Positions 45,454-58,805 of a stretch of 64,000 nt of DNA are shown piece by piece. The DNA is taken from assembly GCA_028279595.1 (NCBI GenBank), contig JANQNK010000004.1, forward strand, positions 64,001 to 128,000, given 5' to 3'. The notes under the pieces are model-generated. The model worked only from the letters and a program-made list of their open reading frames with translations, searched no databases and had not been told where the DNA came from. Origin of the DNA: Thermoplasmatota archaeon (lineage in GTDB: Archaea; Thermoplasmatota; JAKEGO01). The number at the start of each line of letters is the position of its first letter. Within the stretch, counting starts at the first letter, position 1. A program made the translations under genes and the position numbers.

Positions 45454-46188
45454 ATGTCAGAGCTCGCGCTGGTGATTGCGGCCCTCTTCGCCTACGGGGT
45501 GTTCAGGGGAACCAGCACCTGTGCCACTATATGCACCCCTGCCCTCCTACCCTACGTCGCCTCAAGCGGTATGGGTCCGGCTAGAGCGTTGAAGATGGGT
45601 ATAATGTTCAACCTTCCAAGGCTGGTCATGCTGGTCATATTCGGTGCTATCGTGGGTGCCCTATCCAGCTCTGTGTTCTCGGAGAGTGGGCTCAAGTTGG
45701 TATTGACTGTCACTCACGATATGGCATACATGGCCATAGGGATCCTGCTAATCTTCCTGGGAGTACACATCCTCAGGAAGGGAGGAAGTGAAAGGACGCC
45801 CGGATCCAGACATCGGAAAAGGAGAGGGAGACCGAACCTTTTCCCCAGATGGATCCGTGGAGAGAGGAGGTTTGTGACGACATGGGGGTCCCTTCTCAGT
45901 GTCGCCTGCCTGATGGAGGTCGGGCTATTGGAAGGACTTGCCATGTCCACGCTCCTTGGAGCTTCCGAGTCGAATGTCGTCATCGCGGCGATGTTGGGGG
46001 CTGGTGCAATGGCAGCCTTCGGGATAGGGGCAGCGGTCCCGGTCATCACCCTTGTGGTTCTGACGTCGAAATATGCAGATATGGAGAGACCGTCCCATAC
46101 CCGCTTCTTCACCGAGATCGTACCATGGTTAATGGTCCTGGTCGGCATCTTCCTGATCGGAACCTCGGCCTTGAGATTGAGCCTCTGA
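45454..46188 (+). CDS. DsbD_2/TauE-like multi-TM protein (cytochrome c biogenesis transmembrane-like)
   Basis: CATICTP near TM1, FNLPRL...G..G, second Cys in SVAC, and G...M.AFG.G..P; about six TMs. Confidence 0.65.
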   Translation: MSELALVIAALFAYGVFRGTSTCATICTPALLPYVASSGMGPARALKMGIMFNLPRLVMLVIFGAIVGALSSSVFSESGLKLVLTVTHDMAYMAIGILLIFLGVHILRKGGSERTPGSRHRKRRGRPNLFPRWIRGERRFVTTWGSLLSVACLMEVGLLEGLAMSTLLGASESNVVIAAMLGAGAMAAFGIGAAVPVITLVVLTSKYADMERPSHTRFFTEIVPWLMVLVGIFLIGTSALRLSL

Positions 46189-46256
46189 TCCAGTTGTCTC
46201 GACCAGTGCTGGAAGAATGCATAATCCTCATATATCCATGTGGCATTTGGATTATC

Positions 46257-48614
46257 ATGTTAAGGGCCAGACTACAGAGGGGGCAGGCTCTCGTTCTCGC
46301 TATCTCGATTTCTTTGCTCTTGAACCAATATGGAGCACTTGCAGATGGTGGGACCGACCAAAGCGATGTCAGAGGGTATCCGGACATACTGACCGTCGAG
46401 GTGAATGCTCTTGCCCCGGAGGCACCCGCTGTGGTTGGGTTCCAGCCGACGGAGGAGTCCTATCTTTCGGCAGCGTGCATGATACCGGCCTACTACAATA
46501 GAATTGACTCAATACCGCTGATATTCGACGACGGATCGGGTGAAAACGCCGTCCCTGAGGATTTCGAGGCCGTGACGATAGAGTTGGGGAGCGGTGGAAC
46601 GGACATCTGGACCATGGACTTCGCATACGACCATTGGAGCGAAGCGGGGGTCGTCGTCCTTGTCGAGGATTACGAGTGGGCGCTCCGATCCGTGCCGATC
46701 TCTGCCCAGCTGTGCGCGCCGATGGTCACAGCTGTGACCCCTGCGTTCGCAACGAACCTCTCGGTCGAACTCGTTATAATGGCCGGCGATGGACTGTCTG
46801 AACAACAGGTCCCAGCGGGTACCAAGGCGATCCGCTTGACTAGCGCCGAGGACCTCTGGACGTTCCAGCTGGACGTATACTCCATGATGGGGAGGGCGTG
46901 CGACTACGTGGTCGTAACGAATCCCACCGACATCGACCCGGCCGTGGACATCCAGCTTCATGGTCTATCCCTGTCCGCCGGACTCCTTGCCGCATACAGG
47001 GGTGCGGTCGTTCAGACGGGAGACCTCACGGGGCCCAGGGACCTGATATCCACGATCATAAAAGCGGAGGAGCCGGATGACGTGACCTACGACCAGGTCG
47101 TCCCCTACTTCCACGCAGTGAAGGAATCCTGCTGGGGAGCCCAGGAGTTCATGATCGACAGGGACCTGACGCCGGCCTTCCTCGGGCTTGTGGGAGGCCC
47201 ATTCGCCCTTCCGGATTACATCCTCGACATCCACATCCTCTACCATTACTGGGCAAAGGAGTTGCATTACGTACCAACGACTGCGCCCTATGGCAATTTC
47301 TCTTCGGAGAAGCCCGTTGACACCTACGTCAAGGAGGACGCAGCGGTCGGGCGGATACTCGGTGACAACATCCTCGATACGTCGTTACTGCTTTTCCGTA
47401 CCTTCTTCTACAGGGAGTTCCTGCCCGGTGGTGAATACGACCCTGGGACCGCGTGGAGTAGCTCCAGCATCATGATCGACGGACACCGCCTGAACCAGCC
47501 AGAGCCCGGCGGTCCTAACATTTCGGCGAACGTCGTGTGGCACCCTGGTGAGGAGGTGATGGAGGAGTTCGACGCCGCCGGCTTTGACGTAACCTACGGG
47601 TTGCCAAAGAACGAGACGGACCCAACGGATACGAACCTCTCGGTAGTGTCGCTCATGGGGATCCTCGTGAACTCCTCAGTGAGCCACATAATCGCCCACG
47701 GACATACCGAAATGATACGATTCGAGGTTGGGATCGATCCCGATACCGGCGATGGGCGCATCTTCGCGCTGACCTGCGACCAGATAAGGGACCTTGGGCC
47801 GACAGCCCCCTTCGCTATAGGCGCGATCGCTTGTGGATCCGGCACCTTCTCTAAGGACGTCCCGTTGAACAGGACAGTTCCGCTATCTTTCGTGCATGCG
47901 GGGGCTGTCGCATTCCACGCACCGGCCACCGGTCAAGCGGTGTGCTTCTGGGACCAAGCTCCCGAGGGTGTCGCTTCGGACATGTCCTACATGATGTGGA
48001 ACTACAGCCTGAACGACAATATTGCGATCGGAAGGGCAATAGCGGATGCCAAATGGGATGCATTCAGCTCGTGGCGCGATGCGGGAAACATATCCCATGA
48101 GGACCCGGCCACGTTCCACCTGTTCGGGGACCCGGCCCTCGAGCTATACAAACCCGGAGTCCCGTTCAGCGATCCAGCACCGATGGAGGTGGAGGTCGAG
48201 TTGGATATCGATCCAAGCTCTATTGCCGCAGGAGATGCGGTAGTGATGAACTTCACCTTCTCCGATCCGGCAACAGGACTACCGATCATGATCGATTGGG
48301 ACAGGATCGAGGTAGGGAACGAGGTATTCGATGGTGCATATGCGGAACCCACATCCAACGCTTCACACAGCTTCACGCTGAACGAGGAGGGATTGAACTG
48401 GATCAAGATATCCTTCGGTGCGGATGGTTATGACACCTACGAAGCGACCTACCTGTTCAACGTTGAAGGGACCGGTAGTGGTCCTGAGGATGAAGATGAT
48501 GAGGACTATCCGATAGCAGCGCTCATGGTGGTCGTTCTCGGTATCGTGCTAATCGTATTGGTATACGTGTATCTGCTCAAGGCCTCACGGGGGAGAAAAG
48601 GGAAGGGGAGATGA
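46257..48614 (+). CDS. Membrane-anchored gingipain-like cysteine peptidase (C25)
   Basis: Signal peptide from ATG 46257 (track 45849 overlaps the previous gene); LGLVG, AVGRI, IAHG (His), IACGSG.F (Cys), IGRAI..AK and FHLFGDP; C-terminal TM plus basic tail. Confidence 0.75.
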   Translation: MLRARLQRGQALVLAISISLLLNQYGALADGGTDQSDVRGYPDILTVEVNALAPEAPAVVGFQPTEESYLSAACMIPAYYNRIDSIPLIFDDGSGENAVPEDFEAVTIELGSGGTDIWTMDFAYDHWSEAGVVVLVEDYEWALRSVPISAQLCAPMVTAVTPAFATNLSVELVIMAGDGLSEQQVPAGTKAIRLTSAEDLWTFQLDVYSMMGRACDYVVVTNPTDIDPAVDIQLHGLSLSAGLLAAYRGAVVQTGDLTGPRDLISTIIKAEEPDDVTYDQVVPYFHAVKESCWGAQEFMIDRDLTPAFLGLVGGPFALPDYILDIHILYHYWAKELHYVPTTAPYGNFSSEKPVDTYVKEDAAVGRILGDNILDTSLLLFRTFFYREFLPGGEYDPGTAWSSSSIMIDGHRLNQPEPGGPNISANVVWHPGEEVMEEFDAAGFDVTYGLPKNETDPTDTNLSVVSLMGILVNSSVSHIIAHGHTEMIRFEVGIDPDTGDGRIFALTCDQIRDLGPTAPFAIGAIACGSGTFSKDVPLNRTVPLSFVHAGAVAFHAPATGQAVCFWDQAPEGVASDMSYMMWNYSLNDNIAIGRAIADAKWDAFSSWRDAGNISHEDPATFHLFGDPALELYKPGVPFSDPAPMEVEVELDIDPSSIAAGDAVVMNFTFSDPATGLPIMIDWDRIEVGNEVFDGAYAEPTSNASHSFTLNEEGLNWIKISFGADGYDTYEATYLFNVEGTGSGPEDEDDEDYPIAALMVVVLGIVLIVLVYVYLLKASRGRKGKGR

Positions 48615-58006: not shown

Positions 58007-58007
58007 G

Positions 58008-58805
58008 ATGGCGCTCTATTCAGCTGGGATCGACATCGGCTCCACGTACACCAAATGTGCCATCACGGACGGGGAGAACATTCTAGGTCATTCAACTCTC
58101 CAGACAGGTGCAGGTGCACAGAAGGCAGCGGACACGGCGATGTCGGAGGCATTGGCCATGGCTGGTCTCGACCGAGAGCAGATCGGTGCGGTTCTCACCA
58201 CTGGATACGGCCGGAGGATCATCAAGGAAGCCGATAGCAACATATCGGAGATCTCGGCCAACGCGAGGGGTGCAGCCTGGTTCGGAAAGGAGCTCGGCAC
58301 GATCGGGACCATCATAGACATCGGTGGCCAGGACACGAAGGTGATCGCACTCAAAGAGGATGGTGCGGTGCGTGATTTTCTGATGAACGATAAATGTGCT
58401 GCCGGTACGGGACGGTTCCTTGAGGTTATCGCCAGATCGCTGGGCGCAACCATCGACGATCTCGGCGAGATGTCCCTGAGGGCTAAGGGGGGGATCGACA
58501 TAAGCGCCACCTGTACCGTCTTCGCAAGGTCGGAAGTGGCCTCTATGCTCTCCAAGGGGATCGAACCCGAAGAGATCGCCCACGCCTTGCACCGGGCCAT
58601 AGCCAAGCGGTCCGGGGTCATGGCTAGGAAGGTCGGTCTCCGGGAGCAGGTGTTCTTCGACGGTGGACCTGCGCGGAACATCGGCATGAGGAAAGCCCTC
58701 GAGTCTGAGCTTGGTATGAAGCTGGTCTCGCCCGACAAGCCTCAGATCGTCACGGCCATCGGGGCGTCGCTCCTGGCGAGAGAGAGGAAGGAAGGTGGGC
58801 AATAG
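58008..58805 (+). CDS. CoA-substrate-specific enzyme activase (BadF/BcrAD/HgdC ASKHA ATPase)
   Basis: GIDIGST, TGYGR, DIGGQDTK, MNDKCAAGTGRFLE, TCTVFA.SE and GG.A.N; ATG 58008 (track 57993). Confidence 0.92.
   Translation: MALYSAGIDIGSTYTKCAITDGENILGHSTLQTGAGAQKAADTAMSEALAMAGLDREQIGAVLTTGYGRRIIKEADSNISEISANARGAAWFGKELGTIGTIIDIGGQDTKVIALKEDGAVRDFLMNDKCAAGTGRFLEVIARSLGATIDDLGEMSLRAKGGIDISATCTVFARSEVASMLSKGIEPEEIAHALHRAIAKRSGVMARKVGLREQVFFDGGPARNIGMRKALESELGMKLVSPDKPQIVTAIGASLLARERKEGGQ

Follow-up and report, generated by a model that had tools for sequence, protein, structure and literature searches.

A cluster of nine genes in an uncultured, marine-type Thermoplasmatota archaeon, located at positions 45454–58805 on the forward strand of the 64,000-nucleotide stretch analyzed here (contig JANQNK010000004.1 of assembly GCA_028279595.1, positions 64,001 to 128,000; hereafter the window), may represent the archaeal type B of a widespread, membrane-linked double-cubane reductase system. 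We tentatively favor a function in which a substrate is captured and reduced outside the cytoplasm, and put the probability of this reading at roughly 0.4. The genes, named g1–g9, are listed below; eight of them form one conserved system, and the FN3 gene g7 is a lineage-specific insert. The host genome comprises 2.29 Mb in 21 contigs and is 86% complete.

g1, 45454..46188, +: divergent DsbD_2-like membrane protein with six helices (match to the profile of neighborhood family F3)
g2, 46257..48614, +: membrane-anchored surface protein with a gingipain fold (clan CD, C25-like), an Ig-like domain and a C-terminal helix
g3, 48622..50799, +: beta-rich ectoprotein with a membrane helix at either end, putative partner of the NapH-like protein
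g4, 50796..51884, +: surface protein composed of two Ig-like sandwiches with an invariant G-[GA]-C-C-Y loop, ending in two membrane helices
g5, 51884..52882, +: NapH-like polyferredoxin (Fer4_5 and napH subfamily matches)
g6, 52879..54021, +: predicted double-cubane cluster protein (DCCP), single subunit with a shortened N-terminus (HGD-D)
g7, 54134..57175, +: surface protein built of FN3 repeats and ending in a putative PGF-type anchor (fn3)
g8, 57236..58006, +: ASKHA electron-transfer ATPase (DCCP-R/HgdC type), first subunit (BcrAD_BadFG)
g9, 58008..58805, +: ASKHA electron-transfer ATPase, second subunit (BcrAD_BadFG)

The reductase and its activases

A match of 301 bits to the Pfam family HGD-D was found for g6. 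When the profile of its orthologs was compared with PDB, the DCCP structures 6ENO and 7YYL scored about 361–362 bits, whereas BzdN reached 132 bits and HadC, a dehydratase beta subunit, 114 bits. Among NCBIfam models, NF040772 fits g6 best by a wide margin (317.5 bits, below its cut-off of 350), and a bacterial ortholog from the clade of g6 scores 369.8 bits on the same model. The cysteines C33, C52, C71, C96, C261, C294 and C327 occur in the order of the seven-cysteine DCCP motif; their spacers are 18, 18, 24, 164, 32 and 32 residues, compared with the published 19, 18–19, 29, 166–170, 32–34 and 32, so that three are slightly shorter. C52 is replaced by serine in two type-A orthologs, and the N-terminus of g6 is about 43 residues shorter than that of the solved DCCP. 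Judging from these profile matches and cysteines, g6 is a DCCP and not an acyl-CoA dehydratase. A sequence-only reading of this DNA had described an HgdD/double-cubane-type reductase with two ASKHA activases, with which the matches agree, and had considered that the reductase might instead group with cytosolic 2-hydroxyacyl-CoA dehydratases; g6 was found to group with DCCP.

The cluster contains a single HGD-D gene, and the two-subunit HGD-D pair of the genome is located on another contig (G000:C4:195166-197538, a classic adjacent pair of the dehydratase or reductase type). A fourth, lone HGD-D gene of the same genome lies at G000:C4:215290-216384. These other HGD-D genes share at most 28% identity with g6.

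Both activases are ATPases of the HgdC/DCCP-R type. g8 matches BcrAD_BadFG with 135 bits and TIGR00241 with 176 bits, with cluster cysteines at positions 125 and 164; for g9 the scores are 181 and 250 bits and the cysteines are at 130 and 169. Each protein carries the cysteines of the K-C-[AS]-A-G-T and C-T-V-F-A motifs, and the presence of both cluster cysteines in each suggests that g8 and g9 form a heterodimer. Activase genes are also paired in the loci of Thermoplasmatota and Bathyarchaeia, and g9 is 48–57% identical to the second activase of its relatives.

DCCPs, which were reportedly first described in 2018, carry out a chemistry that is, to our knowledge, otherwise confined to nitrogenase-type enzymes. 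The DCCP cluster can be reduced through its ATPase only and not by dithionite (PMC9351452), and DCCPs have no known physiological role (PMC9351452, PMC7317905).

Conservation and genomic context

A search of 40 relatives detected orthologs in eight genomes, with the NapH-like gene, the DCCP gene and two activase genes in this order; homologs of g3 and g4 accompany them in three of the eight. A scan of one genome per species then gave 80 loci from Thermoplasmatota, Bathyarchaeia, Woese-/Pacearchaeota, methanogen-labelled bins and many bacterial phyla. In the full set of 90 loci, a NapH-like homolog is present within 6 kb of the DCCP gene on the same strand, mostly directly upstream, in 73, and in these 73 loci, which span two domains of life, NapH-like protein, DCCP and activase occur together. 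Activases were observed in almost all of the 90 loci, and the DsbD_2-like family in 44 of them in addition to the window. A quick maximum-likelihood tree with SH-aLRT supports placed all NapH-linked DCCPs, including g6, in one clade (support 98), outside which fall twelve DCCPs without NapH-like neighbors. Type B, the form found in the window, constitutes its own group in this tree (support 91).

The same arrangement was recovered from the side of the surface protein g4, which had no part in choosing the DCCP-based loci. A g4 profile gave 13 strong matches in 401 Thermoplasmatota genomes, which together with L035, a locus from a metagenome-assembled genome (MAG), make 14 loci; g4 is directly upstream of the NapH-like gene in all 14. 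The g3 family precedes g4 in the window and in nine other loci (eight genomes), and in L026, L027 and L035 a different beta-helix protein is found there. The DCCP gene and both activase genes are located beside the g4 loci wherever the contig reaches. The neighborhood search that the sequence-only reading had proposed thus shows its redox and surface genes together in other genomes, and its view of them as one unit is upheld from both the DCCP and the g4 side. Because the synteny is conserved in other genomes, the co-location is far beyond chance.

Re-reading of the open reading frames (ORFs) and junctions in the window also confirmed the nine co-oriented genes and the overlaps described before. 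The sequence ATGA at 50796 forms the stop of g3 and the start of g4, TGATG at 51882-51886 is common to g4 and g5, ATGA at 52879 is common to g5 and g6, and a single nucleotide (58006/58008) separates g8 from g9. Inspection of start codons placed the starts of g5, g6 and g9 at 51884, 52879 and 58008, and that of g2 at 46257, which is preferred because a signal-peptide-like N-terminus begins there. The cluster is bordered upstream by genes for threonyl-tRNA synthetase and a coiled-coil protein on the opposite strand, and downstream by a tRNA gene (58938-59011, 64 bits) 133 nucleotides past g9, beyond which unrelated genes follow.

It has to be asked whether g6 is a chance neighbor of the membrane and surface genes, either as a relative of ordinary cytosolic acyl-CoA dehydratases or benzoyl-CoA reductases or as part of a free-standing DCCP pair. 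Databases do label such genes as 2-hydroxyacyl-CoA dehydratase and the genome has a classic two-subunit pair elsewhere, but the scores of g6 against DCCP (about 361–362 bits, compared with 114–132 bits for dehydratase and reductase subunits), its single subunit gene, the overlapping gene starts and stops, and a synteny with membrane and surface genes that holds across phyla and from the g4 side make this explanation extremely improbable.

The genes that flank the core differ among lineages. In type A of Thermoplasmatota, an FtsX-like permease is encoded together with beta-propellers of three different kinds. In two type-B loci (L141:2667-5450 and L142:4479-7184), an FtsX-like permease likewise stands beside the g3, g4 and NapH-like genes, as in type A. 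In Bathyarchaeia, the flanking genes encode a CARDB surface protein and a 98-residue ferredoxin, with a cation-diffusion facilitator nearby. This facilitator, which has a repeated ZT_dimer domain (L071:3308-4678 and about 12 other Bathyarchaeia loci), is encoded two genes upstream of the set of CARDB, DsbD_2-like, NapH-like and DCCP genes.

Bacterial loci are flanked by genes for a TonB-dependent receptor, DUF4198 or DUF4198-like proteins and ExbB/ExbD/TonB, sometimes also by MacAB and a two-component regulator. The MacB-type pumps adjoining the bacterial operons may be compared with the FtsX-like permeases of type A and of L141 and L142. In 2 of the 22 bacterial loci scanned, strain NaphS2 (L109) and a spirochaete (L054), a cobalamin riboswitch is located directly upstream of the operon. 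Two riboswitch sites were detected in each (L109:4971-5183 and 12788-12977; L054:7013-7318 and 18828-19039; 75–106 bits), and one per locus directly precedes the operon of TonB receptor, DUF4198-like, NapH-like and DCCP genes. The second riboswitch of L109 precedes a second TonB receptor gene. The TonB/ExbBD and DUF4198 context, together with the occasional cobalamin riboswitch, points to nutrient acquisition.

Several loci deviate from the common arrangement. The module is doubled, with two NapH-like and two DCCP genes, in L045 (labelled Woesearchaeota) and L062 (labelled Methanosarcinales), and L059 has two DCCP genes with one NapH-like gene. Each of these three loci encodes a small, uncharacterized protein of about 110–130 residues between its DCCP genes and has a single activase, and the DCCP copies fall into separate sister clades of the tree. 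In addition, the DCCP of L107 (labelled Methanocella) nests tightly within a Bathyarchaeia clade and that of L041 (labelled Methanobacteriota) within a Thermoplasmata clade, so that either the genes were transferred recently or these contigs are mis-binned or carry a wrong label.

Membrane and surface proteins

To the Pfam family Fer4_5, g5 shows a match of 53 bits, and no other Fer4_5 match was found in the 86%-complete genome, so that g5 is the sole NapH-like gene found there. Its scores on the NapH models TIGR02163 (80.6 bits, cut-off 213) and NF007013 (79.3 bits, cut-off 234) are both far below threshold, and no Nap genes (NapG/NapA partners) are present in the cluster; g5 is NapH-like, not NapH. 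The protein contains four helices, a pair of CX3CP motifs and a pair of cytoplasmic [4Fe-4S] motifs. Three further cysteines are extracytoplasmic, C55 in loop 1 and C173-x2-C176(-P) in loop 3, and this outer triad is complete in orthologs ranging from Proteobacteria to Thermoplasmatota, 44 of 67 in total. A sequence search of PDB with g5 returned ferredoxin domains only, and the search with g1 returned nothing.

In two Thermoplasmatota genomes of one family (L026:11248-14964, minus strand, and L027:5964-9581), the NapH-like chain runs past the ferredoxin domain into one extra helix, a g3-like ectodomain of about 630 residues and a final anchor. These fusion proteins have 1,205–1,238 residues, and extra N-terminal helices precede the NapH core. 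The fusion argues that g3 and g5 cooperate physically, and it fixes the topology of g5, with a cytoplasmic ferredoxin domain and with loops 1 and 3 on the outer side of the membrane.

No Pfam match of its own was detected for g1 at an E-value of 0.01. Comparison with the profile of family F3, which adjoins DCCP in 44 other loci, gave a probability of 97.5% (hhalign, E-value 6e-12), and two F3 members that were scanned scored 78 and 88 bits on PF13386 (DsbD_2). In helix 1, g1 contains C23-x3-C27-x-P29 and in helix 4 C152, cysteines that are invariant across 42 sequences; the helix-4 cysteine lies in a P-C-P context in the F3 family and in A-C-L in g1. Another family, f38, which is encoded upstream of the NapH-like gene in some type-A loci, was considered as DsbD_2-like; its signal was weak (77%) and it lacks the C-x3-C motif, and it was excluded from the counts.

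In this lineage, the set also includes three anchored surface proteins, g2, g3 and g4. The sequence-only reading had named a C25 cysteine protease, and both the fold and a conserved His/Cys pair of such an enzyme are borne out in g2; its Pfam score is marginal (Peptidase_C25, 23.1 bits with a cut-off of 23) and the gene is optional, occurring in 4 of the 14 type-B loci. Of the other g2 homologs listed, 13 in number, 12 have a precomputed PF01364 annotation. The AF2 model of g2 (pLDDT 75, pTM 0.79) matches best Kgp and RgpB in PDB (E-values of 5e-13 to 1e-9), followed by MALT1; the sequence search of PDB with the g2 family gave nothing. The candidate catalytic residues, H481-G482 and C526, do not vary across 15 sequences. 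Syntenic homologs of g2 occur in three further families (L140, 38% identity; L143, 33%; L139, degenerate).

For g3, no Pfam match was found. The protein has helices at residues 19–37 and 682–700, and its description as beta-rich is based on repeat patterns and on weak language-model neighbors (beta-helix/CARDB, 0.85), which serve as a lead only. Homology of g3 with other proteins at comparable positions was considered and rejected: the beta-helix/NosD-like proteins in the same slot of L026, L027 and L035 gave no significant BLAST match and represent separate families in one position, and the Bathyarchaeia CARDB protein (F6) is not homologous (hhalign 3%).

Multiple alignment of g4 revealed invariant residues C71, C72 and Y73, and the Cys-Cys motif is kept in nine homologs. 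Its AF2 model (pLDDT 76) matched only generic Ig, FN3 and macroglobulin sandwiches in PDB. The g4 family is small, with 42 representatives at E-values below 1e-30 among 1.84 billion. We claim no link to the bacterial DUF4198-like family F8, which lacks a conserved cysteine and differs from g4 in length.

The large gene g7 had been counted as an FN3 PGF-CTERM member of the system. Its repeats (at least six; fn3, 176 bits) and its PGF motif are present, the latter in the C-terminus ...DTPGFELVVVSTAMIVAGLMVRRRRP, which scores 20.2 bits on TIGR04126 (PGF_CTERM) with a cut-off of 24.5; its membership of the system is probably wrong. Synteny of g7 is limited to G002, a relative of the same order, and a TATA-like element (TTTAAATA at 54081-54088) lies upstream in the 112-nucleotide gap between g6 and g7; g7 is thus a lineage-specific insert that probably stands outside the system. 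A frame of 408 residues antisense within g7 (55472-56698, minus strand), which has no homologs in the compared loci, is probably a by-product of GC-rich repeats.

N-glycosylation sequons amount to 1.4–1.7 per 100 residues in g2, g3, g4 and g7, compared with 0 in g6 and 0.4 in g8, densities which fit the inferred outside and inside locations of these proteins.

Possible function and relation to known systems

Soft ligands recur at the membrane in this system: the outer cysteine triad of g5, the Cys-Cys loop of g4 and the helix cysteines of g1. In the mechanism that we tentatively favor, the surface proteins would bind a scarce substrate on the outside of the cell, standing in for the TonB-dependent receptor and DUF4198 proteins of bacteria. 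The g8/g9 heterodimer might use ATP hydrolysis to boost ferredoxin-level electrons onto the double-cubane cluster of g6, from which they would pass through the iron-sulfur chain of g5 to its outer cysteine site. The bound substrate may be reduced there at very low potential, and the product would enter via g1. Among possible substrates, a thiophilic trace metal species is the most likely, and the evidence points weakly to cobalt or a corrinoid as the best single guess; the purpose looks assimilatory rather than respiratory. NapH-like proteins are modular electron carriers to extracytosolic enzymes, and clusters with DUF4198 and TonB have been tied to metal reduction and uptake (PMC8238504). 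Outward flow through g5 is favored because it would be downhill after the ATP step and would account for the outer cysteines and the fusion. The most specific form of the proposal, in which ATP-energised electrons are exported by an iron-sulfur-only conduit with neither heme nor flavin and reduce a captured metal compound below the potential of ferredoxin, is doubtful.

Several observations weigh against capture and reduction outside the cytoplasm. The 90 loci were chosen by DCCP similarity, many of them are on MAG contigs, and their gene calls are ORF scans. Among type-B loci, only that of the window has an adjacent DsbD_2-like gene. Outside the two bacterial loci with a riboswitch, the other 20 bacterial loci yielded none, and neither did the window or those archaeal loci that were scanned. 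In vitro, DCCP directly reduces small molecules instead of relaying electrons (PMC9351452, PMC7317905). The main Bathyarchaeia clade lacks all three outer cysteines of g5, and a Bathyarchaeia subclade (L093, L094, L098, L100 and L102) has no NapH-like gene. Within this subclade, a DsbD_2-like gene directly precedes the DCCP gene in four of five loci (none is nearby in L102), and two activases and the small ferredoxin are kept in all five. These losses fit a cytoplasmic reaction better.

Such a reaction is the core of the main alternative, in which g1 and the surface proteins would bring the substrate in and DCCP would reduce it inside; possible substrates of this kind are chelated metals, organometallic compounds and cob(II)alamin, which would be reduced to cob(I)alamin. 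The NapH-like protein would then be a membrane dock only, or a ferredoxin-like donor of the activase. Besides the in vitro activity of DCCP and the Bathyarchaeia that keep DsbD_2-like protein, DCCP, activases and the 98-residue ferredoxin when outer cysteines or NapH-like protein are gone, this alternative draws on the weak similarity of the DsbD_2-like family to ArsG and Ni/Co permease families, and on the model of selenocysteine-assisted organometallic (SAO) uptake, which ties DCCPs to importers lined with cysteine or selenocysteine (bioRxiv 10.1101/2022.07.06.499078). However, it leaves unexplained both the outer cysteine triad shared from bacteria to archaea and the fusion of the NapH-like protein with a surface ectodomain, and a quinol-fed NapH-type protein could not reduce the activase cluster without added energy. 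We regard import followed by reduction inside as unlikely on balance, though far from negligible.

The sequence-only reading had assigned the cluster a different purpose, namely that exported reducing power keeps the surface protease and the Cys-Cys protein reduced, or cleaves disulfides or other sulfur bonds in extracellular proteins. In four type-B loci, the gingipain-fold protein is indeed present and its His/Cys pair intact, g4 and g5 carry outward-facing cysteines, and thiol reducing power is known to cross membranes via DsbD relatives. On the other hand, thiol upkeep and disulfide cleavage are chemistry at about -270 mV that DsbD and thioredoxin already provide, and they work without an ATP-boosted potential. 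Ten of the 14 type-B loci have no C25-like gene, nor does any type-A, Bathyarchaeia or bacterial locus with the same core. In bacteria the surroundings are those of TonB uptake and not of proteolysis, and none of the conserved neighbors looked like a thioredoxin-type partner, a genome-wide search for one not having been made. Since the potential is excessive, the protease gene optional and the bacterial context one of uptake, this purpose is not sustained, and we consider it highly unlikely.

Very improbable, too, is a system for electron uptake, in which the outer site and the surface proteins would take up external electrons, for example from sulfide minerals, and the ATPase would boost them for reduction in the cytoplasm. 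The anatomy expected is the same as in the favored capture-and-reduce mechanism, and the activase step runs one way, into DCCP; but the bacterial importers (TonB receptor and ExbBD) suggest that matter is moved and not electrons alone, and inward-working NapH-like proteins are without known precedent.

Parts of the capture-and-reduce system have relatives among characterized proteins. The DCCP/DCCP-R pair of Carboxydothermus hydrogenoformans (6ENO, 7YYL; PMC9351452, PMC7317905) likewise consists of a single-subunit HGD-D protein with the seven-cysteine motif and an adjacent ASKHA [4Fe-4S] ATPase. In comparison, g6 is shorter and below the NF040772 cut-off, two different ATPase genes are present here instead of one, and there is a NapH-like partner and usually a DsbD_2-like one too, whereas the model enzyme has no known membrane partner. 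Two different ASKHA subunits that feed an HGD-D-type iron-sulfur enzyme are also a feature of class I benzoyl-CoA reductase (BcrABCD/BzdNOPQ), but that enzyme has two HGD-D subunits and acts on a CoA thioester, whereas the cluster has one subunit, with DCCP cysteines and far less similarity to it than to DCCP.

Proteins of the NapH/NosH/NosR/PceC type share with g5 the four helices, the two CX3CP motifs and the C-terminal two-cluster ferredoxin domain, and are thought to hand electrons to extracytosolic enzymes (PMC8238504). In contrast to them, g5 has the extra outward cysteine triad and no flavin-binding domain; no NapG/NapA, NosZ or dehalogenase partner is encoded in the cluster, and the partner of g5 would be a cytoplasmic ATP-driven reductase and not the quinol pool. 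The FoxB and PepSY-DUF4198 systems of TonB import (PMC8238504) follow a similar scheme, in which a substrate is captured outside, reduced at the membrane and then taken up; with them the bacterial relatives share TonB receptor, DUF4198(-like) proteins and ExbBD-TonB. Heme or flavin is used in those systems, whereas iron-sulfur clusters and ATP would be used here, and the archaeal form has anchored surface proteins in place of the outer-membrane parts.

The SAO locus also places DCCP genes beside soft-ligand-lined envelope transport, with a proposed role in the handling of metal compounds (bioRxiv 10.1101/2022.07.06.499078). It differs in its ABC transporters and MerB-like lyase, and selenoproteins are absent from our cluster. 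A link to selenium, as in Haft's correlation with SelD, was considered and rejected: no SelD above the cut-off was found in the host genome at its 86% completeness (best score 77 bits, cut-off 125). The combination of parts had been thought undescribed, and no account of it turned up among the papers searched for a connection of DCCP with polyferredoxin, NapH, TonB, DUF4198 or pyrite.

These results have a consequence for annotation. Genes of the DCCP type in Thermoplasmatota and Bathyarchaeia are often misnamed as acyl-CoA dehydratase or aromatic-ring reductase, which feeds wrong claims of anaerobic aromatic degradation by sediment archaea. One DCCP subfamily is now placed in a fixed cellular setting, together with an iron-sulfur protein in the membrane, a permease lined with cysteines and putative surface capture proteins that differ by lineage, and the conserved gene set offers the DCCP class a concrete, testable cellular role. 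If the export of ATP-energised electrons proves true, it would represent a new type of extracytoplasmic "super-reductase" in archaea and bacteria and the first physiological role for double-cubane proteins.

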